Positions 10,824 to 34,190 of a stretch of DNA of 64,000 nt are shown here, in pieces. The stretch lies in NCBI GenBank assembly GCA_016208965.1, contig JACQXB010000004.1, forward strand, positions 12,914 through 76,913. Reading direction: 5' to 3'. The notes under the pieces are model-generated. The model searched no databases and had not been told where the DNA came from. It saw only the letters and a list, made by a program, of their open reading frames with translations. The DNA is from Nitrospirota bacterium (GTDB taxonomy: Bacteria > Nitrospirota > Thermodesulfovibrionia > UBA6902 > DSMQ01). Positions within the stretch are counted from its first letter, which is position 1, and each line of letters starts with the position of its first letter. The position numbers and the translations under genes were made by a program.

Positions 10824-10848
10824 CAGTGAATAGTGAACAGTGAATAGT
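10824..10848. repeat. Heptamer tandem repeat YAGTGAA x3.5
   Basis: cagtgaa tagtgaa cagtgaa tagt, directly after the aroF stop. Confidence 0.85.
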
Positions 10849-11048
10849 CTAAAAACTAATATCCAAATTGAGCGATTCTTATACTTTGTCATTCCCCGAT
10901 TCAATCGGGGAATCCAGTCTTTTCGCCTTTCTGGATTCTCTGGTCAAGCCAGAGAATGACACTCGGTGGGTAGTTGCATTTTCTTCAAAATACTTTGATT
11001 AAATAAGATTTTTACTAAAAAATCGCTCAATTTAGCTAAAAACTAATA
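10849..11048. mobile_element. MITE-like insertion carrying a GTCATTC...GAATGAC cloverleaf unit (10888-10960)
   Basis: 13-bp direct repeats CTAAAAACTAATA at 10849-10861 and 11036-11048. 13-14 bp inverted repeats AAATTGAGCGATT at 10864-10877 and 11021-11034. Internal nested hairpins. Confidence 0.6.
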
Positions 11049-13240: not shown

Positions 13241-13574
13241 AGAATCTATTCGCCTAACGTTACTGGTGCAAAAGAAGTCCCGATGTTTCGGGATTAGGCT
13301 TTAATCTTTTGCAATGTGTTAGCCGTCAATTGCAGGTAGCCTAAAAATAGAACTTCCCATTTTCTTTTTTCCTTTTTTGGAAAATGAATTTTGAAGGTTT
13401 TAATGAAAAATTTAAAGACGGTACATTACAAAAAGATACTTCTTCTTTCGAGGTTGAACAAGATTTTTGGCAATGGGAAGAAGCCGAAACACTGAAAAAA
13501 CATTACGAATCCCTTAAAAGAGAATGGACTTAACCCAGCATGTTGACAGGTATCTGTGGGAAAAGTAAGTATTT

Positions 13575-14816
13575 TTAAATCGCTCCTTTTCCTGTCAGGA
13601 CAATGCGGATTGTCCTAAGAAAGATCAGAATATCAAGCATGATACCTCTGTTCTTAATGTAATAAAAGTCATACTTTAATTTCTCTTTTGTATCATCCAC
13701 AGAATTGCCGTAGCGGTAATTAATCTGCGCCCACCCTGTTATCCCGGGCGTGACCATATGCCGTTCAGTGTAATAGGGAATCTTTTTCGCCAGCATCTCA
13801 ACATTACTTATTGTTTCGGGGCGAGGACCTATAAAGCTCATCTCGCCTTTTAAGATATTGAAAAATTGCGGAACCTCGTCAAGCCTTATCTTCCGCAAAA
13901 AACTGCCGACACGCGTAATTCTGCTGTCTTTCTCAGTTGTCCAGTACACGTTATTATTTTTGTTTGCACCAGCCACCATTGTCCGCAGTTTCCATACTCT
14001 AAATGGTTTACAGTCCCTTCCGATGCGCATCTGAGAATAAAAGACCGGGCCTTTTGAATCCAGCTTGATGATTAAAGCGATTATCGGCAAGAAAGGCAGT
14101 AATATGCAGATGCTCATCAGACTCAGGACTATGTCTGTAAATCTCTTTGAATACCAGAAATATTTCCTGTTCACTGTGCTCATCAGTTCAAGGATAAACC
14201 AGTTGGCATCAAGATACTCTACAGGGACTTTCCCCGCAATTTCCTCCACCACTTTTTTGAAATCCGTAACCTTGACCTTTTTCTGCATACAGCCAAGCAA
14301 CAATTTCATCAGCTCCTCATCAATCTTCTTGTAAGTGACAATTATCTGGTCAATATTTTCCTTTTCGGCAATTCTTGCAAGGTTTTCGTTTTTCCCCATA
14401 AAAACAAGACCAGAAGACGAGCCTGCGTCAGGGTCATCTGACAAATAACCAACGATACTGGAATGAAGATACTTCCTGCTATTGATAAGCAAAGCCATTT
14501 CTTCGCTGGCTTTCTTTTTTCCAACAATCAGTATCCTCCATGATATAAACGACTTGAAGAGCTTGTTATAAAAATAATGAAATGTGGCTATGAAATATAA
14601 CGCAAAAGGGAAGAAGGTAAGAAAGACAGCCCTTGGTATAGCAATCTTCCTGAAAAAAAAGAATATGAAGGTGCTGATAACAGCAACCAATAAAAGTCCC
14701 ATTCCCGCGCCAACCATCTGCCGCGAGAATCTATCAGGAATCTTATGCACGGAGTAAACATCGAGGATTATAAAGACAAGCACAACCAACGATATTAAAA
14801 CGAGGAAAGCCTTCAC
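13575..14816 (-). CDS. Priming polyprenyl-phosphate sugar phosphotransferase (WbaP/EpsB-type, Bac_transf domain)
   Basis: FRVWKLRTM, RLDEVPQFFNILKGEMSFIGPRPE, N-terminal TM and CoA-binding-like domain. Confidence 0.9.
   Translation of the reverse strand: MKAFLVLISLVVLVFIILDVYSVHKIPDRFSRQMVGAGMGLLLVAVISTFIFFFFRKIAIPRAVFLTFFPFALYFIATFHYFYNKLFKSFISWRILIVGKKKASEEMALLINSRKYLHSSIVGYLSDDPDAGSSSGLVFMGKNENLARIAEKENIDQIIVTYKKIDEELMKLLLGCMQKKVKVTDFKKVVEEIAGKVPVEYLDANWFILELMSTVNRKYFWYSKRFTDIVLSLMSICILLPFLPIIALIIKLDSKGPVFYSQMRIGRDCKPFRVWKLRTMVAGANKNNNVYWTTEKDSRITRVGSFLRKIRLDEVPQFFNILKGEMSFIGPRPETISNVEMLAKKIPYYTERHMVTPGITGWAQINYRYGNSVDDTKEKLKYDFYYIKNRGIMLDILIFLRTIRIVLTGKGAI
14653..14808. repeat. About 155-bp near-identical direct repeat, copy 1 (5' end of the priming transferase gene)
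   Basis: Matches 17266-17419 with one mismatch seen by eye. Confidence 0.9.
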
Positions 14817-14999
14817 TCATGATTCCATCAGTATTTTTTGATACATATTCGTAATAATGTCCCAGTCATAACGACTCATGACCAGATGCCTTGCCTTTGC
14901 TGACATATCTGCTCTATATGTTATATCCATATCCTCTACTGTAGTCAACAATGACGGAATGCCGCGCGTGCCCAGGATGGCTATTTTTTTATTCATCAT
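14817..14999 (-). pseudogene. Chimeric glycosyltransferase remnant: foreign GT N-terminus fused to a native GT1 C-terminus
   Basis: MMNKKIAILGTRGIP (DUF1972/GT4-type start, GC-rich codons) is joined directly to ARHLVMSRYDWDIITNMYQKIL (GT C-terminal end, AT-rich codons). Only 60 aa. Confidence 0.5.
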
Positions 15000-16129
15000 G
15001 CCGACAAACCCACAAGCCAGTTGGCTGCATCAGAAATTCTGATTCCGTTGCGAAATTCTTCCTGCCGCAGCCCATAGACTATCTGCACTGCCTCCGCATC
15101 AGGAAACTGCCCGACAAATCGCGACAAGCCGGGATGCGGCTTATTGTCACCCAGCTTGCATTCAATTAGGTGCGTCAGCCTGCCTTCCTCACCGAGGGCA
15201 AAATCAACTTCAACGCCATCCTTGGTACGAATGTAATGCAGGCCGGCAGATTTTCCCATGCTATCCTGAAGAAAATGCACATGTTTCAGCAGCATGCCCG
15301 CAACCGCATTCTCCAGGCGCACACCCTGGCCGCCTCTAACCATGCCCGTATCGAAAAAGTACACCTTCGGGGTTTGCAAAATAGCACGGGCAATATTGTG
15401 ATGCCACGGCTGAACCGTAAAAACAATAAACAACGCCTGCAAGATATCCAGATAGCGTTTCAATGTCGCGGGTGAAACCGCCAGATCCCTTGCTATGGAT
15501 GCCAATGATAGCGGGGTGCTGACACGCTCGCGCAACAACTCCACAAACAGGCGCATTGTGTTAATCTCATGCAGGCGTGAAAATTCAAGTACATCTTCAC
15601 GAATCAGGTCGTTGAAATACTGCATACGCCAGCGATCAGCCTGCACGGAATCATCAGCTAGGCACGGCTCGGGGAAGCCGCCTCTTTCCAACAAGTGATC
15701 CAACGCATCGGCTGGCTCCACATGCAGCTGTTCACACCACTCGCGCACCGAAAACGGATGCAAGCGAAAAGCAAAATAACGTCCCGCCAGCGAATCCCCA
15801 CCCTGCCGGAAAGTTTCCATACGGGCACTGCCTGTCACCAACAGAGCCTGCCCCGCAGACCGCCCATCAAACACCCCCTTCAGCCAGCCCTTCCAGCCGC
15901 GCATCTTGTGAATCTCATCCATGACCAGCAATTTTGCGCGCGGATTCCATGACTGCTGCTGCAAAACCGCCCGGTCAGCCAACACGTCCCAGTTCAGATA
16001 CTGGGCGCTGCTGAATGCCCCCATCAAATGACGACTGAGCGTGGTTTTGCCCACCTGACGCGGCCCGGTCAGCACCACCATTTTGGCGGACAAGTCGTTC
16101 AATATACGTTCATCAAGATAGCGTTTCAT
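14996..16129 (-). CDS. AAA+ ATPase with a DUF4143-type C-terminal domain
   Basis: Walker A LTGPRQVGKTTL, Walker B LLVMDEIH. Clearly higher GC than the flanks. Confidence 0.85.
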   Translation of the reverse strand: MKRYLDERILNDLSAKMVVLTGPRQVGKTTLSRHLMGAFSSAQYLNWDVLADRAVLQQQSWNPRAKLLVMDEIHKMRGWKGWLKGVFDGRSAGQALLVTGSARMETFRQGGDSLAGRYFAFRLHPFSVREWCEQLHVEPADALDHLLERGGFPEPCLADDSVQADRWRMQYFNDLIREDVLEFSRLHEINTMRLFVELLRERVSTPLSLASIARDLAVSPATLKRYLDILQALFIVFTVQPWHHNIARAILQTPKVYFFDTGMVRGGQGVRLENAVAGMLLKHVHFLQDSMGKSAGLHYIRTKDGVEVDFALGEEGRLTHLIECKLGDNKPHPGLSRFVGQFPDAEAVQIVYGLRQEEFRNGIRISDAANWLVGLSA

Positions 16130-16500
16130 TCGACTAAGTATACATCTTATTTAAGAAAGTCGCAACTTTATTGCATTGTGCTTTAACATAGTCGTCAAAT
16201 TATCATCTAAGCGCTTTATGTAAGACTTATAGGCGGGCATACGCAAAGGTTTCAAAGCCACCATATTGCGCAGGGATGCCGCGCGGAATATTTTATCATA
16301 TTCGCTCGCTAACCCCTCCACCTCAGGCGGACTGAGGCGCAGGGAATGCGCTCGCTATCCGTTTCAATTAAGTTGCCTGTGCCCTTTTTACTTTCAGGAA
16401 TATGGGAAGTGTCCCGTATTCTCCTCCCGTATTCTCCTTCCATGCAAGCACCTCTCTTACGTCATCTCTGTTAAATAGAACCGTCCCATTAAACCATTAA

Positions 16501-16839
16501 TTGATAAAAATCTGCAAACGGCCTTTAGGCTTCAAGCCCGCTGAGTCTCTGAGGTCTTATCTTGTCGGTCCCGAACAAAAACATCTCGTTACCTTCCTCA
16601 GACATCCTGGTGTGCAGCCCACAAACAATCATGCGGAACAGTCAATTCGTTTTCTGGTAATCTTTCGTAAAATCATGTTCGGAACTCGCTCGGAAAGTGG
16701 TCTTAAAACCCACAGCATCCTCCCCAGCCTGCTGCAAACAGCCCGAAGACAGAAAGTCCATCCAAGAGAATTTCTGCAAACTCTCCTTACTTCCGATACC
16801 GCTACTGCCCAAGCTAAACTGTATAATAATTCAAGCTGA
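16501..16839 (+). mobile_element. IS66-family transposase C-terminal fragment
   Basis: LRHPGVQPTNNHAEQSIRFLVIFRKIMFGTRSESG matches the remembered IS66 C-terminal TNNxAE...RK..G motif. No DDE core or terminal IR was seen. Confidence 0.6.
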
Positions 16840-16845
16840 GACGAT

Positions 16846-17400
16846 TTAATGCAAAAGAACTAAACTGTTACAATCAACAACCCTTATCTTTTCCTGCATA
16901 CATCCAAGCAACAGCCTCATCATGTCTTCGTCAATTTTCCTTGAAGCGACTATTATCCGGTCAATACTCTCTCTTTTAGCGACCCTCGCAAGGTTTTCAA
17001 TCTTCCCCATAAAAACGAAACCCGAAGACGAGCCTGGGGCAGCGTCGTCGGATAAATAACCGACAATGCGGGAATGAAGGAATTCCCTCCTGTTGATAAG
17101 CGATGCGATTTCTTCGCATATCTTCTTTTTCCCGACAAGCAGCAGCCTCCAGAACACGAACGACCTCAAAAACTTATTTAAAAAATAACGGAATACGAAC
17201 ATAAAAAAGAACGAAAATGCAAAGAAAGCAATAAAAACAAATTTTGGCACCGCAATCCTTTTGGAAAAAAAGAATATAAAGGTGCTGATAACAGCAACCA
17301 ATAAAAGTCCCATTCCCGCGCCAACCATCTGCCGCGAGAATCTATCAGGAATCTTATGCACGGAGTAAACATCGAGGATTATAAAGACAAGCACAACCAA
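16846..17400 (-). pseudogene. Truncated paralog of the priming sugar transferase (N-terminal domain only)
   Basis: The first 45 aa are identical to residues 10-55 of 13575..14816 and the rest diverges. The catalytic Bac_transf domain is missing. The frame ends at the junction with the GC-rich insert. Confidence 0.8.
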
Positions 17401-19739: not shown

Positions 19740-20569
19740 TTACTTCTTCCATCCGCTTAGCTCCGCGCCAACAAGGTTTTCGAGTTTATCTATTTCAGGA
19801 AGAAAAACAGGATCAAGAATAGCTCTGGCTTTTTCCGTAATCAGATTTTCCTTCTTATAATCATATCCCTTGAAAAAAAGATTCTTAATCCTGTCTGAGC
19901 GCTTTGCATGGGTCAGAAAACCGTATAGATGCAAACTTCTCAATATTATGGCAGCGCCCTTGGTCAGCAGTGTAGCCAGCGGGAACCTCGGAATAATCGC
20001 AGTATTTACCTTTTTATCAATAACCGAGGGAATAAAATTCTCATCCACTCCAAGAAACCTGAAAAGGTTCTTGCATAGTTCAACCGGCCTGCTGACAAGG
20101 TCATCATAGAACAAAATAAATATATTATCCCGCGAAAACATATCATAATACGGTTTGCCCAGAGAATAATAACGATTCTCATATATGAGTTCCGGCATTT
20201 TTCCCAGTGCCTCTTCAAATGAGCAATTTAACGCCCCCCCCTTAATTTGAATGAATAAACGGACTGAATCCTCTCGTAGGGATTTCTCAGACAGATGATG
20301 ATCTTACAGTCAGGCACGGTTTTCCTGATCCTCTCGGGCACTGCCGGATCAAATATATAGCGGTTAGATATCTCCCCGACTGCCGAAGCCTTGCCGCAAT
20401 CCTCAAAAAACTTCTTATACCACCCGACACCTTTCTCATAATGAATATTAAAAAACTGGGTCTCTTTAATGTTTTTTGCAGTGCAGACTTCGCGGTGTTC
20501 CAACAAAACTTTATACAACCATGAAGTTCCGGCGCGGCCGGTTCCGATACAAATGAAATTAGGAAGCAT
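19740..20569 (-). pseudogene. Sulfotransferase split by a frameshift at a poly-G(8) tract
   Basis: N-terminal part 20228..20569 has the PAPS motifs GTGRAGTSWL and RNPYERIQS. C-terminal part 19740..20198 has FILFYDDL. The run of 8 C on the plus strand at 20234-20241 separates the two frames. Confidence 0.8.
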
Positions 20570-24266: not shown

Positions 24267-25502
24267 CTATATATGAGTAATGTGATTTGGCCGGGCTTTA
24301 CTGGTCAAGATAGGTACCTTATCCGCCAAGTCGATCTCAGCACGCCACTTGGAACGGCAAGGGATCTTTGACATATCACACCTGTCCTTATATTTTTGTG
24401 CAATGGTAATCACTTCCTCCATAAGCCCCCCGCTCAGAGTTATAGGAGACAGCCCGAGTTCCATGAATTTTTTATTTGAGACCTTCAACGTATTTTCGTC
24501 TGCCTCTACACGGGGATTAACAAGGTATTGAATTTCCGCCCCGATCATTTTCGCAACCTTCCCTGCCAGCCATTTCACGGTATGCGTCTCTGTGGCCTGA
24601 TTGAAAATCTCGACACGGCTATGCTGTTCCGGAGGATTCTCAATTGCAAGCTTAATGCACTTCACAGTGTCACGAATGTGAATAAACGCCCGCGTTTGCC
24701 CTCCGCTACCATGAACCGTTAGCGGGTATCCAATGGCGGCCTGCATGAGGAAGCGGTTAAGGACAGTGCCATAGTCTCCATCGTAATCGAAACGGTTTAT
24801 CAACCTCTCGTCAAGCAAAGTTTCATCGGTATTCGTACCCCATACGATTCCCTGATGCAGATCGGTAATCCTCAGACGGTCGTTCTTGTTGTAATAGTAG
24901 AACATGAGCGCGTCCTGAGTCTTGGTCATATGGTAGACGCTTCCAGGGTTCGCCGGATAAAGTATTTCGAGATCTTTCTTCTCTCCATCAACATCAACCG
25001 CCACTTTAAGATAACCTTCAGGAATCTCCATGCCGGCCATCCCGTACCCATACACGCCCATGGTCCCAAGATGGACCACATGGATATCGAGGCCCGATTC
25101 CACGATCGCGCAGAGGATATTGTGGGTTGCATTTATATTGTTATTTACTGTGTAACGCTTGTGAAACGCAGATTTCATTGAGTACGGCGCGGCTCTTTGC
25201 TCGGCAAAATGAACAATCGCTCTGGGCTCGATCTCCTTTAACAGTGTCAAGAGCCTGTGATAATTCTCCGCAACATTGATATTGATGAATTTGATGTCTC
25301 TTCCTGTATGCTGCTTCCACGCTTTAATCCGTGTCCCCATCGGTTGTATCGGCGTCAGGGAATACGCCTCAAGTTCATTATCGATATTGCGCCTGCTTAA
25401 ATTGTCAACTATGGTCACATCATATCCATGCTGTGATAAAAATAGCGCTGTTGGCCAGCCACAGAAGCCGTCTCCTCCAAATATTACAACCTTTTCTTCC
25501 AT
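24267..25502 (-). CDS. sqdB: UDP-sulfoquinovose synthase (SQD1/SqdB family SDR)
   Basis: GGDGFCGWPTAL, VDNLSRR, SLTPI, HFAEQRAAPYSM, LGTMGVYG, SVYHMTKTQD, DLHQGIVWG, RFDYDGDYGTVLNRF, GGQTRAF.HIRDTV all track the remembered Arabidopsis SQD1 sequence. Start taken at MEEKVV with the AGGAGG RBS; the ORF-track start at 25592 is an upstream extension. Confidence 0.85.
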   Translation of the reverse strand: MEEKVVIFGGDGFCGWPTALFLSQHGYDVTIVDNLSRRNIDNELEAYSLTPIQPMGTRIKAWKQHTGRDIKFININVAENYHRLLTLLKEIEPRAIVHFAEQRAAPYSMKSAFHKRYTVNNNINATHNILCAIVESGLDIHVVHLGTMGVYGYGMAGMEIPEGYLKVAVDVDGEKKDLEILYPANPGSVYHMTKTQDALMFYYYNKNDRLRITDLHQGIVWGTNTDETLLDERLINRFDYDGDYGTVLNRFLMQAAIGYPLTVHGSGGQTRAFIHIRDTVKCIKLAIENPPEQHSRVEIFNQATETHTVKWLAGKVAKMIGAEIQYLVNPRVEADENTLKVSNKKFMELGLSPITLSGGLMEEVITIAQKYKDRCDMSKIPCRSKWRAEIDLADKVPILTSKARPNHITHI

Positions 25503-25705
25503 AACTCCTCTCCTCCTTGAAACTTTGCGGAATTCCCAGCTTTTTTGTGTCACATTCTTAATTCGGAGAATCTCCCTTTTATTATCAAACAAGCTGTCAT
25601 CCTTTCAAAGCTGAACCCCCGACTTCTGATTAAATGTAATGTTATTTTGCAAGATACTTGCCTCAATCAACTTCTTATCTTTTTTAGATACGCCTTTCCT
25701 TGTTT

Positions 25706-26107
25706 TTAACTTGTCAGCCAATTTTCAATCTTGAGTCCGGGAATCCTTTTAAAATGATTTTCGTTATTCGTCACAAGGACAGCATCGTGATTTTTCACAA
25801 TGCTCGCTATCAGAATGTCCGCATCATTAATCAGCGCCCCTGATTTCCTTAAGGAAGCATAGATTTCGCCGCCTATTCTTGACGACTCGTAGGTTTCGTC
25901 CATTAATATTGATGAGTTGACCAACGCACTGAGGAATCCCTCTTCTTCCAATTTACCACTATCAAATATTCCCTTAAAAAACTCATATACGCTGAGCCAT
26001 GATAATCCGATAGAGTCATCTTCCCGCAGATTTTCAATTCTGATTTTTATAGATTCATTTCCTCTGAAGTATTCTATTAGGATGTCGGTATCAAGACAGT
26101 AGATCAC
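25706..26107 (-). CDS. vapC: VapC PIN-domain toxin
   Basis: MIYCLDTDILIEY, DILIASI, LVTNNENHFKRIPGLKIENW. Confidence 0.88.
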   Translation of the reverse strand: MIYCLDTDILIEYFRGNESIKIRIENLREDDSIGLSWLSVYEFFKGIFDSGKLEEEGFLSALVNSSILMDETYESSRIGGEIYASLRKSGALINDADILIASIVKNHDAVLVTNNENHFKRIPGLKIENWLTS

Positions 26108-26358
26108 AGTTTGATATCGCCCCTGCCGAATTTTTTTCGGTCTTTAAAGATACCCCTAAAAATATTAATCTCATCTGCATTTTTCTGGTTCCATATACCA
26201 AATAAATCAAGAAACTCTGCCTTGTTAAACTTTGCTGTTTCAATTATTATGCGTATTTTTCTGCCCCTTTTAAGAGAGAGCTTGCTTGCTATTTCTTTAG
26301 GAATTGACAGGTGACCATCATTCAGATATTCTGCCATATACGCTGCTCTATTCCCCAT
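26104..26358 (-). CDS. vapB: AbrB/SpoVT-fold antitoxin (VapB)
   Basis: HLSIPKEIASKLSLKRGRKIRIIIE. Overlaps the vapC start. Start chosen at MGNRAAY with the AGGAGG RBS. Confidence 0.75.
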   Translation of the reverse strand: MGNRAAYMAEYLNDGHLSIPKEIASKLSLKRGRKIRIIIETAKFNKAEFLDLFGIWNQKNADEINIFRGIFKDRKKFGRGDIKL

Positions 26359-26380
26359 TTCTTTGTCCTCCTTTTTATGG

Positions 26381-26392
26381 TTAATTATACCA
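26381..26392 (-). promoter_or_regulatory. Extended -10 promoter element (TGGTATAAT) for vapBC
   Basis: The minus strand reads tatGGTATAATtaacc, about 26 nt upstream of the ATG at 26358. Confidence 0.4.
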
Positions 26393-26524
26393 TAGTTTTG
26401 CAATTAACCGAACCAAAGAGGGACACATCCTATTTTCTAAAAAATCTCCCTTTATAAGAAACCAAATATAAACACAAAAGGTGTCAGGCATTGAAATGTG
26501 AATTAACATTCCATGTTTTATATT

Positions 26525-26710
26525 TTACTTTTCTGAAAACGGATTAATGATTTTAAGTTTTTTCTCAATGACCTGCCCCTGCTGAAGGTCTTCAGTATAG
26601 AGAGCAGAGCAGTTACTCTCCAATGCTGAAGCTATGATAAGGCTGTCCCAATATGCGAAACCATCTATGTGCAGCGAGCTTATAGACCAAGACGGCACTG
26701 AATAAAACAA
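26525..26710 (-). pseudogene. PIN-domain remnant (C-terminal half only)
   Basis: DGFAYWDSLIIASALESNCSALYTEDLQQGQVIEKKLKIINPFS parallels the C-terminus of 27604..28020. Confidence 0.6.
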
Positions 26711-27052
26711 GGAACTCTGCTGAAAAAGTGACGATATAATCTTTCTTCATCTTTTGAATAATCTATGAAGCATTTTTATCATCTTGAATTGCCTTTACCA
26801 TGTTTTTAGCTGCATTGCCTTCTCCATAAAGTTTTATATTAAAATCAAACTGCCTGTCTTTCATCTTATAAAATGTATTTACAGAAAAGGGGACAGGCTA
26901 CTTTTTTCTGGTTTGTCTGGTCTATCTCAAATGTCATTGAGTCATAGCGTCGTTGCGTCATACAAATAGCTTACAAGCGAACAAGCCAACAAGCTGGGAA
27001 GCATGGAAAACGTGAGCCGTAAACAGCATGGAGCAAAGAGCAAGGCGTTCGG

Positions 27053-27265
27053 TTATGCCGCTACCAGAACGTCTTTCAGCTTCTCTTCCAGTGCCTTGAT
27101 CATATTCTGGATCGCCTCAACCTCTTTTTCCTCAAAGTATCTCTCCCCGCACTGTGAGCACACATAACCAGGGATTTTCTCAATGAAGAGATGATATCCA
27201 TTTCTGTCCACGGTGTATGAGACTGAGGCTTTTTCCATTTCCCCATTGCAGAACAGGCACTTCAT
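27053..27265 (-). CDS. YgiT/MqsA-type zinc-finger antitoxin
   Basis: CLFCNGEM...CSQCGERYF, two CxxC pairs. Overlaps the upstream DUF4258 gene. Confidence 0.8.
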   Translation of the reverse strand: MKCLFCNGEMEKASVSYTVDRNGYHLFIEKIPGYVCSQCGERYFEEKEVEAIQNMIKALEEKLKDVLVAA

Positions 27266-27579
27266 TTTTTTCTCCTTTTCTTAAAATCCTCTTGCCATTT
27301 TTCCAAAGACGGTATATATGCCGTTATTATAGCAAGATATTCCTCTTTTGGCGCGCATACTATATGGACGGGCCTTTTGGTATCAGGCATGGCGAACATC
27401 AGACAACTATGCCCCCTCTTGTCTTCTGGGTAATCCTCTATGATCTCGCCATTGAACACTACCTGCCTCACTTCTTCCACCGATATGAGCTCGTCCTCAG
27501 CGTTCATCTCATCAACTGCATGCGCAGTATAGATGATCCTCTTTGTTGCTGCTCGCCTTATTTGATCAACAAGATTCAT
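27262..27579 (-). CDS. DUF4258-family toxin-like protein
   Basis: IYTAHAVDEMNAEDELISVEEVRQVVFNGEIIEDYPEDKRG...PVHIVCA pattern. Confidence 0.7.
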   Translation of the reverse strand: MNLVDQIRRAATKRIIYTAHAVDEMNAEDELISVEEVRQVVFNGEIIEDYPEDKRGHSCLMFAMPDTKRPVHIVCAPKEEYLAIITAYIPSLEKWQEDFKKRRKK

Positions 27580-27603
27580 ACGTAAAGGGGACGGTTCTAT
27601 TTT

Positions 27604-28020
27604 TCATGAAAACGGATTAATGATCTTGAGTTTTTTTTCAATGATCTGGCCGTCCTGCATGTCTTCCGTATAAAGCGTTGAACAGTTATTTTCCAATGCA
27701 ACAGCCAATATTAAACTGTCCCAATATGCGAAACCATTGAGTATGCTGATATCCATAGCCTTTATAACCGATGAGGAAAGGACGTCAACTACATTAAAAT
27801 TTGAAGATATTTCCAACCCCATTTGTCTCGCTTCCTCTTTTTCCTTCAATCCTTTTTTGACCAGGACATGAAAGAATTCTCCAAGAACCTGTGTGCTGAT
27901 GATAATATCTTCAAAATATTTATCAACAAGGCTCTTTATTGTTTCTGTTTTTTCTTTGTTTGAATCGTCAGCATACAGGTATACCCAGAGATTTGTATCT
28001 ACGAAAACCCTATCGTTCAT
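27604..28020 (-). CDS. PIN-domain toxin
   Basis: VFVDTNLWVY, GFAYWDSLILAVA, LYTEDMQDGQ. Confidence 0.85.
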   Translation of the reverse strand: MNDRVFVDTNLWVYLYADDSNKEKTETIKSLVDKYFEDIIISTQVLGEFFHVLVKKGLKEKEEARQMGLEISSNFNVVDVLSSSVIKAMDISILNGFAYWDSLILAVALENNCSTLYTEDMQDGQIIEKKLKIINPFS

Positions 28021-28231
28021 GCAATTCTTCTCTATTGAACTTGTAGTCTTTGGGTAGGGTTATAGCATGTTTTTTGACAAATTCAAAAAAAACTTTTTTA
28101 TCATTTATGGGGCTCTTAAGTTTTAAGTTTTTTTTGCCATATTTTGTTAAAAGATACTCATAGAAATCGATTAACTCCTTTTTCACTTCCTTGGGCAGAA
28201 TATCAATATCTATCTCTTTTAGTCTTGCCAT
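28010..28231 (-). CDS. Putative antitoxin (DUF2281-like) of the downstream PIN toxin
   Basis: 73 aa; overlaps the PIN gene start; LPKEVKKELIDFYEYLLTKY motif. Confidence 0.5.
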   Translation of the reverse strand: MARLKEIDIDILPKEVKKELIDFYEYLLTKYGKKNLKLKSPINDKKVFFEFVKKHAITLPKDYKFNREELHER

Positions 28232-28391
28232 ATATTTCCTCCTTTACCTCTGCTATTTTTATTGCCATAAAACCCCCTCTTGCCTTATTTTAGCACAATC
28301 TCTCAGCAAACCTCACATGGATTTTGACATCCCCCATGGAAACAAACAAGGGCATAAATCTAAGAGTAAATCTAAGAGGGACACAGAGCCT

Positions 28392-28512
28392 GTCTAAAAA
28401 CTATAATTCCATCAGACTGTCATTCCCCGACTTGATCGGGGAATCCAGTTTTTTCAATAGGTTCTGGATTGTCCAGTCAAGCTGGACAATGACAAATACT
28501 GAGTTTTTAGAC
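28392..28512. mobile_element. 121-bp MITE with 11-bp perfect TIR (GTCTAAAAACT) and an internal GTCATTC...AATGAC cloverleaf unit (28419-28493)
   Basis: TIRs at 28392-28402 and 28502-28512. The internal hairpins match the copy at 10888-10960 with compensatory stem changes. Confidence 0.7.
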
Positions 28513-28623
28513 AAGCTCCACATCCCATATTCTAAAAAATCTCCCTTTATTATCAAACAAGCTGTCTCCCATCCAAACTGAAGGTGTAAAAGGGGACGCA
28601 ACCCTTTAACCCATCAGAAGTAT

Positions 28624-29022
28624 TCAGATTAACCAGTTTTCTAACTTCAAATCTTCTATCCGCTCAAAATGAAAAACATTATTTGTGATCAAAATGCAAT
28701 CGTTGGATACGGCTACCGAGGCTATCAGAATATCGAAATCTTCGATCACATTACCCCTTGCTCTGAGATCTGTCTTGATCTTTCCAAAGAGTCTTGCAGA
28801 TTCATCGCTCTCAGACAATATAGCCAGGTTTCTCTTGAAGGTTTCTATGCGGTGCAGATTTGCATCAACTTTTTTTGAATTATAGGCGCCGAAATATAGC
28901 TCAGCCAATACGCTATACGACAATGCTAATGAATAGGCCCCAACTTCTTGAACCTTCTTCATCAATTGTTGATTGCCGTTCAAAAGATAAATACATGTAT
29001 TAGTGTCCAAAAGATACTTCAA
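28624..29022 (-). CDS. vapC: VapC PIN-domain toxin
   Basis: MKYLLDTNTCIYLL, DILIASVAV, LITNNVFHFERIEDLKLENW. Confidence 0.88.
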   Translation of the reverse strand: MKYLLDTNTCIYLLNGNQQLMKKVQEVGAYSLALSYSVLAELYFGAYNSKKVDANLHRIETFKRNLAILSESDESARLFGKIKTDLRARGNVIEDFDILIASVAVSNDCILITNNVFHFERIEDLKLENWLI

Positions 29023-29276
29023 AATATCTTCTCTGCCCTGTTGGTAGATTTCCTACTTGAATAAATATCCCTTATCTGCTCTTCAACTGACCTGTCATCT
29101 TCCCATGTGCCACAGACTGAGAGGAATTCTTCGGTTGTTTTTTTCTCATCAAATTCAGAAAGCATGATCTCGCTTCTCATGAAATGGATTATCCTTGCCA
29201 GTTTTTCCTGCGCTGGTGCAGGTAATGCCTGCATTTCTCTAAGCACCTTTTCTTCATAGACCGTTTTCGTATGCAT
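29019..29276 (-). CDS. Putative antitoxin of the downstream VapC
   Basis: 85 aa; 4-nt overlap with vapC; the family was not recognised. Confidence 0.5.
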   Translation of the reverse strand: MHTKTVYEEKVLREMQALPAPAQEKLARIIHFMRSEIMLSEFDEKKTTEEFLSVCGTWEDDRSVEEQIRDIYSSRKSTNRAEKIF

Positions 29277-29831
29277 AAAACCTCCTTTATAAATTTCTGC
29301 GCTTCAGATATGGCAGTCCCGGCAGATGCACTATCCAATTTTCTTGCCCTCTATTATAACATTGTTCTCATTTTTTACCAGTTCTATTTTATCAAAACGG
29401 TAATGTCAAAACTTCTGTGTAAATTCATTTAAGGGTTTAATTCTCCATTAAAAGTTAGAAATAAATAAATAATAGGGACACTTCCCATATTATTATATTT
29501 GCTGATTAATTTTTTCATATTCTATGTATGGTTCAAACCTTCACAGAATTGGGGTCTTGAATCTTGAATTTTCCTTTCATCGTCCTCGCTATCCCTTTCC
29601 TCCGAATAACGTTCCCCATGGGGAATTTCTTACTTATTTCAACCAAAAAACCATTCATAATCATCATGGCTGCCGACCCAGAACCATGTCACTGCATGAA
29701 ACAGGGGGTCACATCTTCATATATCATTTAATATCTCCTCGACCTTTTTGAAAATCGGAACTATTTTAACTTTCCTTATATCCGAAACCTTTTGATTACT
29801 CCCGATTTTATGCCTTTCGGTAAACTCTATT

Positions 29832-30263
29832 TTACCAAGCCATTCGTTTTATAAATTCACTGGCTGTATTAATATCAATCCCTGCATAAGTCTTCAGGTT
29901 TAATAGATGACTATCACCTGAAACAATAACAGTTGCCTGTGCCGATATAGCACATTCCAATACCCGATTATCGTCAGGGTCTTCTTTTATCACATTAATC
30001 GTATGCCCCGCTTCTACTAAAGTGACGAACAATGCAATCTTTGCAACTGCCTTTTCAACAGCGTATTCTTTGCCTTCAAGCTTTTTAGAGAACTTCTCCC
30101 TTTTTAAAACTCCCTCTAACTTGTTCAATATTTCCATTGATACAAAAAGATGAATTTCTTTTCTCTCAGATTTCTCAAGAATCCTGGCTTCATTACCGTT
30201 CCACAAAAGTCCTGAAATAAGGGTATTCGTATCAAGAACGACCTTTTTCAAAATTACCGTCAT
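29832..30263 (-). CDS. PIN-family toxin (TIGR00305-like)
   Basis: VVLDTNTLISGLLW start; D-rich C-terminal VSGDSHLL. Confidence 0.78.
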   Translation of the reverse strand: MTVILKKVVLDTNTLISGLLWNGNEARILEKSERKEIHLFVSMEILNKLEGVLKREKFSKKLEGKEYAVEKAVAKIALFVTLVEAGHTINVIKEDPDDNRVLECAISAQATVIVSGDSHLLNLKTYAGIDINTASEFIKRMAW

Positions 30264-30517
30264 CCTTTCTTCCTATATTTTTTTATCTCCTCAGCGACAT
30301 CATCGATCTTTAACTTTTCTTTTTTAGCCATCTTCCTGAATGGACCGGCAACTTCACTAAACGTCATATCTTTAAGAGACTTATAAACTCTCTTAAGGTA
30401 TATCGTCTCCGAATCAAAAAAAAGGTCAAATTCCATACCCTTTTTAAGTTTGAACTTATCGCAAACATTCTTAGGAAATTCAATCATACCGCTATCCATC
30501 AGTTTGACTTTTTCCAT
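30260..30517 (-). CDS. AbrB/MazE/SpoVT-fold antitoxin
   Basis: IEFPKNVCDKFKLKKGMEFDLFFD; overlaps the PIN gene start. Confidence 0.72.
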   Translation of the reverse strand: MEKVKLMDSGMIEFPKNVCDKFKLKKGMEFDLFFDSETIYLKRVYKSLKDMTFSEVAGPFRKMAKKEKLKIDDVAEEIKKYRKKG

Positions 30518-30540
30518 ATCTCTCCCTCCGCAATTTTTAG

Positions 30541-30572
30541 GGATGAAAAGGGACTCAACCCTTTTTCATCCT
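30541..30572. terminator. Strong 12-bp hairpin GGATGAAAAGGG/CCCTTTTTCATCC between two TA modules
   Basis: Read directly; lies between the MNT module and the abrB-PIN module. Confidence 0.4.
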
Positions 30573-30622
30573 CTAAACCAAGTTTTTCTCCGACACAAAA
30601 ACTTTTGTCTTATCAATAACCT

Positions 30623-30709
30623 CTACGAGTATCTCAACATCTCAACTGCCCGGTCCAGTCTGTTAAAGTCTTCTTTTAGCTCTCTTATCATTAAGGCTTC
30701 GGATTTCAT
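30623..30709 (-). pseudogene. Possible truncated HEPN partner of the MNT gene (28 codons)
   Basis: ATGA overlap with the MNT stop. MKSEALMIRELKEDFNRLDRAVEMLRYS*, then a stop. Assignment rests on position and a weak N-terminal resemblance. Confidence 0.3.
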
Positions 30710-30993
30710 AGTCTTACTCCTTCATGCAGCGCTATCTGCTTAAAAGTGTCTTCTTCTTTAAAGGTAGAGGAAATTATATCAAGCTTCTGTTCACCAAACT
30801 TTTCAAAATAATGCCATCTTATTGTGGCCTTTTCCTTCCAGCGTATTTTTCTATTCGATAGAACCATAATATCTATGTCTCCGCCCCTTTTTTTGTCATC
30901 TGCCCGTGAACCAAAGAGATAAACTACTGCGTCCGGTACAATAGCCAAAATCTCATTTTTCAGAAAATCTATTTGTTCACGTGAAATTCTCAT
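30706..30993 (-). CDS. Minimal nucleotidyltransferase (MNT, type VII TA antitoxin-like)
   Basis: LFGSRADDKKRGGDIDIMV (GS...DxD). Confidence 0.85.
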   Translation of the reverse strand: MRISREQIDFLKNEILAIVPDAVVYLFGSRADDKKRGGDIDIMVLSNRKIRWKEKATIRWHYFEKFGEQKLDIISSTFKEEDTFKQIALHEGVRL

Positions 30994-31278
30994 TTTTATT
31001 CAAGCCCTTTCCATTCCATGAACAAAGCCGCGACCTCCCGTGCTTTGCCGTTTATCCCCACCGCAAAAGACATTGTCATTAAAAGCCGTTGTAAACTATG
31101 CCCATCCACCCTTTTATTTTATCAAAATGACATGGGGAATGGACAGCAGTAATTGATTCTATAAAGCAAGGTTCCTTTTCACATATACGTCATGCCATAC
31201 AACGTGGTTTTTTTTCATGTCTTATAAAAATTGAACGCTGAACGCAGAGAGCATGGAGCAAAGCGTTTTAAATCTCAC

Positions 31279-31313
31279 TGCTCATTGCTCATTGCTTTTG
31301 CCTCATTGCTATT
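31279..31313. repeat. GCTCATT-type heptamer array (i)
   Basis: tgctcat tgctcat tgctttt gcctcat tgctatt, overlapping the stop of the TPR gene. Confidence 0.8.
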
Positions 31314-32187
31314 CCTCTATCCCCTTCCATTCAAAGAATAACTGCACTGCCATTTCCGCATCAGGGTTATCAGGCGCAATGCCTTTTATCACTTTCTTAT
31401 CCTTTGATATCCGCCAAGCTATCTCAAGCGCGGCAAAAAGATAGCTATTATAAAGCCGGGATAAGTTTGTGGGATGCATTGTCTCTGACATAATCTTTTT
31501 CCTGATATTTTCAGGAGAGGTCTGGTAGCTGTCGTCTATTTTTGCAAGTATCCTTGCCTGCTCAAGCGCCTCTCCTTTTCTGCCTGTAAGGAGGTAGTGC
31601 ATTGCAATCGCATACCTCATGGGCGCATTTACAGGAGCTGCGGCAACAGCCTTTGCAAATTCTTTTTCTGCAAGCCGGGCATTACTGATATTTCTGTCAT
31701 AAAGCTTTCCGAGCGCCAGATGATAATCAGGATTCGCAGGCTCAAGATAAACCGCTTTTTTAAGGTATCTCGCTGAGTTTTCAAAAGCCTCTTTGGCTGA
31801 TACGGCTCCGGCAGGAAGGGGTTCAGCAACAGCGTCCATGCTTTCTGCCCATCTTCCGAGCATTGAATATATATCAGACAGTCCCTTATGATAGATAGAC
31901 TTTGACGGAACAAGAGCGGATGCTTTTTTCAGGGATAAGAGGGCGTCATTGTAATCAGATATTGTATCACCTGAGATACCCTTCATATCAAAATATTCTG
32001 TGGATTTATCATCAAGGATATAAGCCACCCTGCTATGATAATAGTCTGCAATAAGCATTCTGACGGGAAACGAGAGCAGAACGGCAATAAACAAAGCAAT
32101 GAGCAATGAGTTAAAAGATAGCAATGAGGTTAAAGGCAGCCTCGTTGCTCGTTGCTCGTTGCTCGTTGCTCGTTGCTCATTGCTCAT
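31309..32187 (-). CDS. TPR-repeat protein with an N-terminal TM anchor
   Basis: TM LLIALFIAVLL; several TPR-like helices (YLEPANPDYHLALGKLY and others). The N-terminus MSNEQRATSNEQRAT is encoded by heptamer repeats. Confidence 0.7.
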   Translation of the reverse strand: MSNEQRATSNEQRATRLPLTSLLSFNSLLIALFIAVLLSFPVRMLIADYYHSRVAYILDDKSTEYFDMKGISGDTISDYNDALLSLKKASALVPSKSIYHKGLSDIYSMLGRWAESMDAVAEPLPAGAVSAKEAFENSARYLKKAVYLEPANPDYHLALGKLYDRNISNARLAEKEFAKAVAAAPVNAPMRYAIAMHYLLTGRKGEALEQARILAKIDDSYQTSPENIRKKIMSETMHPTNLSRLYNSYLFAALEIAWRISKDKKVIKGIAPDNPDAEMAVQLFFEWKGIEE

Positions 32188-32230
32188 TGCTCATTGCTCA
32201 TTGCTCATTGCTCGTTGCTCATTGCTCATT
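32096..32230. repeat. GAGCAAT/GCTCRTT heptamer array (ii): short forward part, then about 13 inverted-orientation units
   Basis: agcaatgagcaatgag at 32096-32111; ctcgttg/ctcattg units at 32141-32230. Confidence 0.9.
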
Positions 32231-32635
32231 TTACGCTTGATCACGTTGTTTCCTAATGGCTATTTTGAGACCACCTATTATCCGGGAGACCTCAATCGCC
32301 AGGTCGCTTATATCCTTAAACTCTTCTGATGTAATATATCCAACATCAAGGGCTGCATAAAGTTGCGAACGGAGTTCAGCGCAAGATGCCTTTGCAATAA
32401 CAATGAATTGATGAAATTCTGCTCTACTACCACGCTCAAAGCCTTCAGCAAGATTTGACATGATTGATACAGCGGCTCTTTGAATTTGTTCGCGCAGTCC
32501 AAAATCCCTTGAGAATGCTCCCTTTCCAGTCATATGGTAAACATGTTTTGTTAATTTTCTGGCCTTTTGCCATGCAACAAGATCCTCAAACTTTTCAACT
32601 TTCATTTTTCTTCCTACTCGTTGCTCATTGCTCAT
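32231..32635 (-). CDS. Four-helix-bundle protein (23S rRNA intervening-sequence protein / Avd-like family)
   Basis: [13 protein letters not shown]...[42 protein letters not shown]. The likely true start is MKVEKF at 32605; the first 10 codons are heptamer-repeat sequence. Confidence 0.85.
32607..32634. repeat. GCTCRTT heptamer array (iii)
   Basis: ctcgttg ctcattg ctcattg cttgccc. Confidence 0.8.
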
Positions 32636-34190
32636 TGCTTGCCCGCCGGTCTCTTGGAGGGCTCATTACTCTTTGCTCTATGTTCAAGGTTGCATATGTT
32701 AACGCTGCTATTACAGTCAGGAGCAAAGCATTTGCCGGAATTCGCATGTTGAAATCCGTAAAACTGTGAACTGCTATTGCTACGCATGAGGCAAGCCCGG
32801 ATGCAGCCATGCACTTCACAAAATTATTATGCCTCTGACGCCATGCCTTTATAATCTTATAGAAAAAAAAGAAGAGCATCGTAATGACAATCATAAACCC
32901 TGCGATGCCTGTATCAGTAAAAATCTCTATATAGTCATTATGCGCATGCTCGTACAAGAATCGCGAGCGTCCAGTTTGATACTGAAGGTATATGTTCTCA
33001 AATGTACCGAGACCTGTCCCGAATACAGGGAAGTCCCTGACCATGTTAATTGTATCTTTCCAGATATCCGTCCGAGCTATTTTGCCTTCTTCTCCTATCT
33101 CTTCAAATCTGTCTTCTATTCTGTCCCAGCCTGCAATTAAAACCACTGATAATATCAGAATTCCTGCCATAGCAATAACGCCTGTTTTTTTTCTTAATGT
33201 TCTTCTGGTGCGGATTAGCAATGTGAAAAAGAGCATAGATGCTGTAAACCCTATTATCCCTCCCCTTGAAAGGCTTATGAACAAGACACCAGTCATTCCC
33301 ATAACAGCAAGAGACAGAAGGGTAATCGGCATAAGACTGCCGCTGACTGAGAGATTGGCAATCCTCTTGCTTAATGATAGATCAGGCAGTTCCTTTATTG
33401 TTGATGTCTTATAAAGGAGAAGCCCAATCGCCAGCGGTATTGCCATCTCCATGTATCCTGCAAAATGAGCGTGGCCTATATAGGGCCCCCAGATGTGACC
33501 CATATTTGAATTCAGACCTTCGCTCACAGGGTAAAACCAGAAAAGCCTGCCGTTCCATGTCATCTTCTGAACCACTGCAAAAACCGCAAGAAAACAACCC
33601 ATGTAAACTATGGCACGGGCAAGGCTGTTTACCTGCGGCTTTGTTTTATAGTGGTTAATTATCACCAGAAAAATTACAGTGTAAGCAGTGAGCTTGAAGA
33701 TATCATCTATTGTTGCAGACTGATAAATGCTTATGGTGCGCCATGTGCCTGCCATATCACCCGCAAATGTCTTATATAGCCTGCTTGTGGAAGGTGATAA
33801 CAGAGAGAGCAGATAGTCAGGCAAGGGGATAATCTGAAAGACTGCAATTAATATAAGGGCAGCAGGAAAAATGAGAATGCTCATTGCTCGTTGCTCATTG
33901 CTCATTGCTCGTTGCTCATTGCTCGTTGTTGCTCTTTGCTCATTGCTCTTTGCTCGTTGTATCAGCCATGCGCCGAATATTATGAATGCCATTATCTCCA
34001 TAACGGCTATTGACCAGTCTTGAACAGTTCCAAAAGCAAGAGGGGTGAATATCAAAAGCAGGACAATGCCCTTCTCTATCACAGCATTAAAAAATCCCCC
34101 CTCACCCCCCTTTAGTAAAGGGGGGATGGGGGGATTTTCTTTAAAGAGATTATTACTCTTCTTTAAAAAATTCATACTCTCTGAAGCCAT
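32625..34190 (-). CDS. O-antigen ligase-like (Wzy_C) membrane protein
   Basis: [20 protein letters not shown] motif and about 11 TM helices. The start is uncertain because a palindromic element lies in the first 35 codons. An internal SNEQRA repeat stretch is present. Confidence 0.75.
33879..33960. repeat. GCTCRTT heptamer array (iv), about 11 units, inside the ligase-like ORF
   Basis: Translated as [24 protein letters not shown] between TM helices. Confidence 0.9.
34089..34138. repeat. Palindromic AAAATCCCCC...GGGGGATTTT element
   Basis: aaaaatcccccctcacccccctttagtaaaggggggatggggggatttt. Confidence 0.9.

Follow-up and report, generated by a model that had tools for sequence, protein, structure and literature searches.

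A toxin-antitoxin island of mosaic make-up, probably accreted at a recombination hotspot in the polysaccharide locus of a Thermodesulfovibrionia-like bacterium

Contig JACQXB010000004.1 of a Nitrospirota bacterium contains a 5.6-kb island of six small toxin-antitoxin (TA) gene pairs and gene stubs, located inside a surface-polysaccharide cluster. We analysed a 64-kb stretch of this contig, hereafter the window. The explanation that we favour, with a confidence somewhat above even, is that the island is a mosaic that grew by accretion of TA modules at a recombination hotspot in a Thermodesulfovibrionia-like (Nitrospirota) chromosome. This explanation is preferred because stubs of other genes lie between the modules, because neither attC sites nor an integrase were found, and because the site behaves as a hotspot in related loci. 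The AroA protein of the window has its best named relatives in Thermodesulfovibrionia and in Nitrospirae metagenome-assembled genomes, with at most 74% identity. The window was otherwise met only as short Logan contigs of SRR12113399-406, which are identical to it and broken at repeats, and the comparison of the sqdB-like protein with reference genomes gave matches of at most 74% identity without common synteny. Domain calls were made with Pfam and NCBIfam, and the related loci, designated by L-numbers, are short metagenomic contigs to which no taxonomy was assigned.

The island is flanked upstream by a TPR gene (31309-32187, minus strand) and downstream by an sqdB-like epimerase gene. The host cluster encodes Wza, Wzc, a PHP phosphatase, a ligase, a 23S rRNA intervening-sequence protein (IVP) and the TPR protein and, beyond the island, the SqdB-like protein, a flippase, and methyl-, sulfo- and glycosyltransferases. 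The island sits exactly where the conserved export/polymerisation part (Wza/Wzc/ligase/TPR) meets the strain-variable sugar-modification part, which supports the view of the first-pass annotation, an earlier reading of the sequence, that TA genes split the polysaccharide locus. Read along the minus strand from 31.3 to 25.5 kb, the order is the TPR gene, a heptamer array, a stub of an adenosine 5'-phosphosulfate (APS) kinase gene, a 37-codon open reading frame (ORF), module 1, module 2, a 555-nt geneless spacer, module 3, a 392-nt spacer with a miniature inverted-repeat transposable element (MITE), modules 4 and 5, a spacer in which a heptamer block is followed by what is probably a wecB stub and by half of a PIN gene, then module 7, and finally the sqdB-like gene. 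All TA genes (25706-30993) are indeed on the minus strand, as had been noted, but this uniform orientation is not special to the island since it is common to the whole polysaccharide cluster: from 13575 to 40642 every family-supported gene is on the minus strand except an IS66 fragment (Pfam). The island features described below, the MITE excepted, are on the minus strand as well.

The two-gene TA modules that had been recognised are real, but their number is six (1, 2, 3, 4, 5 and 7, one of them with a truncated partner) plus one PIN stub, and not seven. Module 1 consists of an MNT nucleotidyltransferase gene (30706-30993; Pfam Polbeta 5.7e-9, NTP_transf_2 3.5e-7) and a 28-codon ORF (30623-30709), read from the sequence, that overlaps the MNT stop and has no Pfam match. 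MNT is the antitoxin-type partner in MNT/HEPN pairs, and the 28-codon ORF is presumed to be a truncated toxin gene. Module 2 combines an 85-aa protein (30260-30517), called an antitoxin from its position only and without a Pfam, NCBIfam or PDB match, with a PIN_3/TIGR00305-type PIN nuclease (29832-30263; PIN_3 2.3e-20, TIGR00305 1.9e-21), the genes overlapping by 4 nt. Module 3 contains another 85-aa antitoxin without family or PDB match (29019-29276), overlapping by 4 nt the gene of a VapC (PIN) toxin (28624-29022; Pfam PIN 2.8e-12) that scored 2.2e-37 and 128 bits against the NCBIfam VapC model of the Leptospira type, under the curated cut-off of 140. Module 4 (27584-28301) encodes a DUF2281-like antitoxin (28231-28010) and a PIN toxin (28020-27604; Pfam), and has an extended -10-like sequence of its own, TGCTAAAAT, upstream, and the 3' motif AAAAATAGAACCGTCCCCTTT (27604-27584) just past the PIN stop. 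In module 5 (27053-27579) a DUF4258 toxin-like gene (27579-27262; 7.9e-21) precedes the gene of a YgiT/MqsA-type zinc-finger antitoxin (27265-27053; YgiT_finger 3.5e-13). Module 7 (25706-26358) comprises an 84-aa antitoxin (26358-26104), the start of which was taken from gene calls on identical contigs, and a VapC (26107-25706; Pfam PIN 4.2e-10, NCBIfam VapC 2.8e-21).

The five intact pairs all overlap, four of them by 4 nt and the DUF2281-like/PIN pair by 11 nt (28010-28020). Among the toxins, the PIN domain was recognised four times, DUF4258 once and the family of the MNT partner once, through MNT, whose partner is truncated; among the antitoxins, the YgiT finger scored above its cut-off, and the DUF2281 and VapB matches remained below theirs. 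Three antitoxins had no match at family thresholds in Pfam or NCBIfam, and none in PDB sequence searches. The domain assignments proposed earlier (VapC/PIN, DUF4258 with YgiT, DUF2281-like, PIN_3/TIGR00305 and MNT) hold in Pfam and NCBIfam, with the exception of two "AbrB" antitoxins, 30260-30517 and 26104-26358, which found no support at family thresholds: the latter, from module 7, gave only a weak AbrB-like Pfam score (E=0.0099, under the curated cut-off), the former nothing, and PDB searches gave no match for either. Judged by their genes, the modules would be self-contained type II TA operons of approximately 0.7-1 kb each, with predicted toxicity and neutralisation, and at least module 4 carries its own promoter-like sequence.

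Remains of genes that do not belong to the TA modules are found between them. At the upstream side, a 16-codon 5' stub of an APS kinase gene (31174-31221), 94% identical over 16 aa to the N-terminus of the kinase in L086/L087, marks the island's upstream junction, near 31173. The 37-codon ORF (30996-31109) ends in 18 residues (30999-31052) that resemble the C-terminus of the TPR protein; BLASTP against the TPR protein of the window gave 9/18 identities with residues 274-291 of 292 (E=1e-4), and a weaker match was found to the TPR protein of L088. Probably, this ORF is what remains of the 3' end of another TPR gene, which came in with the MNT module. A 33-codon ORF (26766-26864) contains YGEGNAAKNMVKAI. 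L088 encodes an Epimerase_2 protein of 388 aa whose residues 370-383 can be aligned to this peptide (E=5e-4), and on this weak match it is probably the 3' stub of a UDP-GlcNAc 2-epimerase (wecB-like) gene. The PIN remnant that had been reported next to it is real, yet larger than first described: it reaches from 26746 to 26525, roughly the C-terminal half of the gene, forms repeat D1 with the PIN gene at 27604-28020 (79% DNA identity with its 3' end) and is 98% identical in DNA to the 3' end of the PIN gene in L095. A frame in the same place (26613-26750, MKKDYIVTFSAEF...), thought to be the scar of a flippase N-terminus near 26616-26750, turned out to be an out-of-frame ORF that overlaps the PIN stub. 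The stretch of about 556 bp described as geneless is so: 29277-29831 (555 nt) contains no convincing gene, has no Rfam match and no likeness to any ORF of the related loci. It includes a palindrome, TTCCCCATGGGGAA, at 29611-29626. Rfam gave nothing in the island at E<=1 and nothing in the window at gathering thresholds. Because non-cassette stubs (APS kinase, TPR, probably wecB) lie between the modules, illegitimate or homologous recombination is favoured over clean site-specific insertion.

The first-pass annotation had proposed to compare cassette content among relatives, and this content varies. Relatives of the site were found by searching with the TPR protein. In L086/L087 (TPR 88% identical) and L091 (63%) the TPR gene is followed by an intact APS kinase gene without any TA genes, in L088 (57%) by an IVP gene and then the APS kinase gene, and in L085 (83%) by the 3' stub of a flippase gene and then the same MITE family as in the window. 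L092 (64%) has one VapBC pair deeper in the locus, and L093 (48%) has HicA/HicB, two Rpn-like genes and VapBC fragments right after the TPR gene. The ligase-TPR flank upstream is kept in L085-L093, and the downstream neighbour varies (APS kinase, flippase stub, sqdB and others). Since the relatives differ at this point, the site downstream of the TPR gene is a recurrent hotspot of rearrangement and TA insertion with varying cassette content. The two Rpn-like genes of L093 (9867-12298) are paralogues encoding proteins of approximately 300 aa, with 92% DNA identity over the best 300 nt; by eye they resemble Rpn-family recombination-promoting nucleases of the PD-(D/E)XK type, to which they would putatively belong.

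Cassettes located elsewhere were collected by a metagenome scan with the PIN protein of module 4 as query. L094 and the window share 94.6% DNA identity over exactly 28301-27584, a block that begins some 70 nt ahead of the antitoxin start, takes in TGCTAAAAT and ends with AAAAATAGAACCGTCCCCTTT past the PIN stop, and the module 4 cassette has the same limits in five different flanking contexts. In L096 a homologue of module 4 is followed by one of module 3, and in L105 a homologue of module 5 by module 4, in both cases in the reverse of the order recorded for the window. In L095, module 4 lies directly upstream of wecB, and in L105 a four-module array with a PIN 3' stub at its end is located between UDP-sugar genes and a Wzm transporter gene. 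From this recurrence in other arrays and in other orders, the modules emerge as discrete, reshufflable units that favour polysaccharide loci. In the literature that could be searched, we found no description of such arrays in Nitrospirota.

The small cassettes, their common orientation and the recurrent spacer sequences had been likened to an integron cassette array without integrase, that is, to clustered attC sites with no integron-integrase (CALIN). A CALIN is defined by at least 2 attC sites that share a strand and lie less than 4 kb from each other, and an attC site is an imperfect palindrome of the form R''-L''...L'-R' of approximately 57-141 nt (PMC4889954). We used a purpose-built scan that allowed at most 1 mismatch per core, forced an AAC:GTT pair and required a single hairpin; it recovered 4/4 of the attC sites that can be recognised by eye in the class 1 integrons of L174 and L175. 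Stricter early heuristics (6/7 complementary positions, unconstrained minimum free energy) missed true attC sites, and their negative outcome was discarded. The scan found 0 sites in 25000-32000, in line with the earlier remark that canonical attC boxes could not be seen, and a version relaxed for AT-rich DNA gave 1 candidate, on the plus (non-coding) strand, against a mean of 2.8 in shuffled sequences. In sliding-window folding, no part of the island stood out by its structure except the MITE and a single hairpin of 31 nt. The search for intI or other recombinases suggested before was equally negative: tblastn with IntI1 gave a best E of 1.0 in the window and nothing in 284 kb of related TA arrays, and Pfam found no Phage_integrase and no other recombinase domain in 30 ORFs of the window; no recombinase was seen in the 284 kb either. 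The units of the island are two-gene operons with gene stubs between them, unlike the usual single promoterless ORF with its attC site. An integrase belongs to complete integrons and is by definition missing from a CALIN. Thus none of the marks of an integron (at least two attC sites, an integrase, promoterless single-ORF cassettes) was present, and without attC sites and integrase the integron reading is unsupported. A tRNA-linked integrative island is not indicated either, with 0 tRNA/tmRNA genes in the 64-kb window according to ARAGORN, and no integrase.

A degenerate CALIN whose attC sites have diverged beyond easy recognition would still account for small, co-oriented, TA-rich cassettes and for recurrent spacer sequences, and TA cassettes are common in sedentary chromosomal integrons (PMC13108822). 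We consider it very improbable, given the outcome of the positive-controlled scan and of its relaxed version, the MITE as the only strongly folding spacer element, the lack of an IntI-like sequence (tblastn E>=1), the predicted promoters and the gene stubs in the cassettes, and a recurring motif of approximately 22 nt that is conserved in sequence and is not a hairpin of 57-141 nt conserved in structure. The only attC-like hairpin of the window, GCCTAAC...GTTAGCC at 13252-13324 (73 nt, palindromic on both strands), sits between the convergent aroA and sugar transferase genes and, as a single copy, most likely serves as a bidirectional terminator rather than as a site for cassettes.

The spacers do contain repeated segments, as had been pointed out. 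Three copies were distinguished: A (28582-28519), B (25609-25551, directly upstream of the sqdB-like gene) and C (26465-26424). The left half of A is shared with B (D3), 28538-28566 matching 25569-25598 (30 nt, 97%), and the right half with C, 28519-28550 matching 26424-26455 (32 nt, 94%); a 19-mer common to both repeats occurs 2 times, against 0.08 expected by chance. Repeat A directly follows a copy of a second, shorter element, the GTCCC-core boundary motif (28607-28582), the two making up a boundary block at 28519-28607, and repeat C, at its full extent of 26411-26465, includes another motif copy with GTCCC at 26424-26420. GTCCC cores on the coding strand are present in each of the seven spacers, at 30554, 29479, 28597, 28382, 27592, 26894 and 26424. 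An A-rich or purine-rich stretch comes before the core and, in most cases, T's come after it, and the motif of approximately 22 nt has a consensus close to WAWGGGWTGNGTCCC. The copy in the 555-nt spacer, AATATGGGAAGTGTCCC (29491-29475), is 17 nt long and identical to 16399-16415, and the one at 26894-26890 lies in the spacer at 26873-27052, which also holds a degenerate heptamer block (27052-26960). The copy with GTCCC at 30554-30550 is part of the 31-nt hairpin, GGATGAAAAAGGG-TTGAG-TCCCTTTTCATCC (30541-30571), which is 81% identical over 26 nt to 28582-28607; folding of 30535-30624 gave z=-4.5. The sequence GTCCCYTYT occurs 4 times on both strands of the window (128 kb), and 4/4 of these are in island spacers. 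Two motif copies are located outside the island (16399-16487, plus strand), with exact matches of 17 nt and 15 nt to the copies at 29491 and 27602, and adjoin the IS66 fragment and an inserted ATPase gene that is GC-rich.

The motif was delimited only once the data had been inspected. Its recurrence is beyond chance and extends to unrelated contigs. It was found in L094, L096 (3 copies), L144 and L155, and a position-weight scan gave 9 matches in 284 kb of PIN loci versus 6 in 1.46 Mb of unrelated loci. Two of the L096 copies lie inside a 35-nt direct repeat (94%) that flanks module 4, and in L144 a 36-nt direct repeat (89%, 27 nt perfect) brackets a DUF2283 + HicBA unit. With the MITE removed, the window and L144 are identical over 19 nt of the motif, and the PIN proteins share only approximately 42%. 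The motif was not found near the TA genes of L092, L093 and, L096 excepted, L097-L105, nor in viral contigs, and as a general feature of TA arrays it can be dismissed because it is missing from several of them. Some of these arrays have boundary repeats of their own: in L105, a 40-nt block with 93% identity lies 58-69 nt ahead of three unrelated cassettes, the sequences diverging right after it, and L097 has a 26-nt repeat. An origin of GGGTTGAGTCCC from a tRNA or T-arm was rejected, as the window contains no tRNA and no further tRNA-like features were seen, and so was an intrinsic terminator, as only two copies form real hairpins, most stems have 3-4 G:C pairs and the arms show no covariation. 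Another kind of repeat, tandem blocks of approximately 9 nt (AAACGCAAT / AAACGCTAT / AAACTCAAT), occurs at TA-cassette boundaries of L101, L102 (e.g., 1180-1282), L105, L118, L122 and L144, always on the gene strand, with 12 clusters in 284 kb of PIN loci and 0 in 1.46 Mb of unrelated loci; a degenerate trace at approximately 26950-26925 is all that the window contains of them.

One motif copy of the window is interrupted by the MITE. This 133-nt element (28386-28518) is inserted with a TGTG duplication, ...GGGATGTG|MITE|TGTGTCCC..., and has 17-nt terminal inverted repeats that are 94% complementary, TGTG on both sides, and no transposase; its DNA fold has z=-8.0. The interrupted motif continues as TGTGTCCCTCTTAGATT (28369-28385), 88% identical to 26411-26427 (D5), so that copy A with the MITE removed reads on as ...GGGATGTGTCCCTCTTAG and matches C; a homologous TGTGTTCCTCTTAGGTTT lies upstream of wecB in L095. 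An element of 1.62 kb with the ends of the MITE is present in L155 at the same position of the motif, ...ATGGGATGTG|IS|TGTGTCCCT..., and encodes a 490-aa transposase with DUF772 and DDE_Tnp_1_6, which we take to be the architecture of the IS1182 family. Inverted terminal repeats, small size, target duplication and a full-length relative with a transposase are thus all at hand, and the 133-nt element would be a non-autonomous derivative of an IS1182-family element. In the motif, insertions of the insertion sequence (IS) or MITE were seen only in the window and in L155, plus one degenerate copy elsewhere (L097). These two insertions suggest a target preference of the IS1182 family for the motif, and this is only suggested because two other MITE relatives, at 10848-11045 of the window and at the end of L085, are outside the motif. 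Beyond the element at 28386-28518, members of the MITE family are found at 10848-11045, at 5290-5425 of L085 and at about 14-86 of L097, with the hairpin CATTCCCCGA...TCGGGGAATG in common; the L085 contig ends in such an element, as expected for a dispersed repeat.

How the island came about is necessarily reconstructed from sequence comparison. According to the accretion model, segments would have been imported and rearranged when related polysaccharide loci and TA arrays recombined with each other, by general or illegitimate recombination, with the conserved/variable junction acting as a recombination hotspot. TA pairs would be retained by addiction: DNA that carries them would be hard to lose, as loss frees the stable toxin, so that modules accumulate and their neighbours are clipped to stubs. 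The boundary repeats (the GTCCC-core motif, tandem heptamer blocks, and copies of the IS1182-family element or MITE) might supply portable homology and breakpoints for shuffling, and the co-orientation would follow from the place of the island inside a 27-kb one-directional gene cluster. Several points weigh against this model. General recombination does not explain why near-identical blocks of 26-40 nt, which end abruptly, precede unrelated cassettes of one array, nor why 19 nt of the window motif are identical in the unrelated L144 contig, and RecA would need more than 30-40 nt of homology to recombine efficiently. The population showed no polymorphism, as every short-read contig of the source samples matched the window. 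The window covers 64 kb of a 100.7-kb contig, which leaves room for a recombinase in another part of the genome. What is said of TA function, toxicity and promoters is predicted from sequence.

Since the accretion model leaves the array-specific boundary repeats and the conservation of the motif across contigs unexplained, two other explanations are kept, each with a low but real probability. One is a cassette platform of a new kind, in which a recombinase or transposase encoded elsewhere would insert, excise and reorder TA cassettes at array-specific sites of approximately 25-40 nt. In the window the site would be the block that ends in GGGWTGNGTCCC, and each insertion would regenerate it and leave one direct copy per cassette. 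A GTCCC core on the coding strand of every spacer, with GTCCCYTYT restricted to island spacers, speaks for such a system, and so do the two motif variants that recur exactly at 16399-16487 next to other inserted DNA, the direct repeats of their own that L096, L097, L105 and L144 each have before unrelated cassettes with divergence right after, and the 19 nt identical in L144 of a motif also found in L094 and L155. In three places the motif directly adjoins a truncated gene (IS66 fragment, wecB stub and stub of the MNT partner), and an IS1182-family element and a MITE occupy the same motif position in two contigs, a placement that resembles the targeting of attC sites by IS1111-type elements. 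The full form of this proposal, a platform in Thermodesulfovibrionia-like bacteria that moves self-promoted TA (perhaps also other small) cassettes with a preference for polysaccharide loci, by means of a trans-acting enzyme and with homing of IS1182-family elements, seems to us rather unlikely. Neither the window nor the 284 kb of related arrays contains a recombinase, the post hoc motif is missing from several arrays with the same cassette types (L097-L105 except L096), and the sequence at the boundary of one and the same cassette changes from array to array, which sits badly with sequence-specific sites. Moreover, the distance from motif to cassette start ranges from 13 to approximately 230 nt, stubs of non-cassette genes lie between the modules, and the motif copies of the window are heterogeneous.

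The other explanation, to which we give a similarly small chance, is that the spacer repeats are ordinary regulatory DNA (promoters, operators, weak terminator or insulator hairpins) without a role in mobility; it can coexist with the accretion model. In its promoter form, an A/T-rich -10 hexamer with a GGGA discriminator and without a -35 element would have been duplicated or selected before each operon; in some bacteria, transcription can start from a -10 with GGGA when no -35 element is there. Repeat A contains a sigma-70-like TTGATA-N16-TAGAAT (28556-28529) that fits the consensus at 10/12 positions, the conserved block includes TAATAT/GAATAT and GGGA in six instances, operons are preceded by copies, among them sqdB (repeat B) and, in L095, wecB, and two copies are palindromic hairpins with A and T tracts at their sides. 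On the other hand, promoter-like sites are no commoner in the region than in shuffled sequences (16 versus 17.5), the -35 region is not conserved, repeats B and C lack the -35 or the -10, and in the block shared in L105 a correctly spaced -10 hexamer is missing. Extended -10 boxes that belong to modules 4 and 7 themselves lie downstream of the motif, in cassette-specific sequence, the motif is absent from approximately 40 other intergenic regions of the window, and the hairpin arms are not kept across copies, with stems of mostly 3-4 G:C pairs.

The island can be compared with several known systems. Like chromosomal TA islands, the island packs unrelated type II pairs (VapBC, DUF4258/YgiT, MNT-type) together, with decayed beside intact copies, content that varies between relatives and IS or MITE nearby. 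Unlike these, it lies inside a polysaccharide operon and not in a prophage, an integrative and conjugative element or a tRNA-linked island, its cassette types recur in polysaccharide loci of related uncultured bacteria, and the boundary repeats are array-specific. With CALINs (PMC4889954) it has in common small, co-oriented cassettes, many of them TA, a reshuffled order, a recurrent boundary sequence and the lack of an integrase nearby; it differs in having no attC sites, in a boundary element of 22-40 nt conserved in sequence and not in structure, in cassettes with predicted promoters of their own, and in non-cassette stubs within the array. The minimal mobile elements of Neisseria (Saunders & Snyder 2002), going by the definition quoted from them in PMC8627216, show a partial likeness: their gene content differs by strain at one site, without mobility genes, and its exchange is best accounted for by homologous recombination in conserved flanks. 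Measured against that definition, the island differs because among the relatives seen only the upstream flank (ligase-TPR) is conserved and the downstream gene is not the same, and because it is a multi-cassette array with internal repeats and not a single alternative cassette. The island has no mobility gene, yet a MITE and conserved boundary motifs are present. Junctions of variable regions in capsule and O-antigen loci likewise have a conserved export/polymerisation block and, after it, strain-specific DNA that recombination replaces, with remnants and IS elements as typical features, but here it is 5.6 kb of TA modules that occupies the place of sugar genes. IS elements that target attC (IS1111) or repetitive extragenic palindromic (REP) sequences resemble the IS1182-family IS and MITE, which are inserted at the same nucleotide of a short, partly palindromic motif in two contigs; the transposase here is of the DDE type with DUF772 and not DEDD, and only two such insertions were found.

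If the island is a TA accretion island and nothing else, it would show addiction modules piling up at the conserved/variable junction of a polysaccharide locus, neighbouring genes being eroded (the APS kinase clipped, a sulfotransferase split), and discrete units of 0.7-1 kb that, in an uncultured phylum, travel from one locus to another. Should the repeats at the boundaries be recombination sites, they would represent a second gene-cassette system, independent of integrons, and offer a handle on the movement of TA and defence genes without obvious mobile elements.

Some observations concern the surroundings of the island. The two motif copies at 16399-16487 belong to a region that starts with a complete sugar transferase gene (13575-14816) and closes with a stub that encodes only a CoA-binding domain (16846-17400). 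Enclosed by these two are the gene of an AAA_14/DUF4143 ATPase (14996-16129), GC-rich at 54%, and a C-terminal fragment of an IS66 transposase (16501-16839); judged by this arrangement, 13575-17400 would hold a second foreign insertion in the same locus, with two copies of the boundary motif. The sulfotransferase gene is split in two ORFs (19740-20198 and 20228-20569), and the APS kinase, which would supply 3'-phosphoadenosine 5'-phosphosulfate (PAPS), is cut to 16 codons; the sqdB-like gene is present. The sulfation branch of the polysaccharide pathway therewith looks decayed.

Tandem heptamers (CTCATTG/CTCGTTG) in up to 13 copies are spread across the window, between genes and inside ORFs. 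They were seen at 31274-31310, 32141-32230, 32617-32639 and 33878-33959, and also at 4910, 9700-9779, 10825, 12093, 45812, 54630, 59967 and 60665. Inside ORFs they encode SNEQRAT/M repeats, in the O-antigen ligase (32625-34190) and in the N-termini of the TPR and IVP proteins, and since the frame would shift whenever the copy number changes by anything but a multiple of three, phase variation is possible. Similar heptamer repeats have been described in Beggiatoaceae, Cyanobacteria and Bacteroidetes (PMC4679880). Genes of the IVP type (four-helix-bundle, Avd-like) are present in the window (32231-32635), L088 (6982-7350), L092 (2474-2848) and L105 (7093-7464). Their position within the polysaccharide loci differs among relatives, and heptamer arrays bracket each of them. 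In L092, L105 and L088 these arrays are mutually inverted, like the stem of an rRNA intervening sequence, yet they lie outside rRNA; an IVP gene with its arrays may be a small mobile or RNA-processed unit. Finally, a dense cluster of tandem repeats of 17-38 nt is located at 6316-6602, just upstream of and into the start of an RHS-repeat protein ORF (6575-7597), and consists of CAAACAAAGGGGGTCAA... followed by the approximate complement CCCCCTTTGTTTTT....

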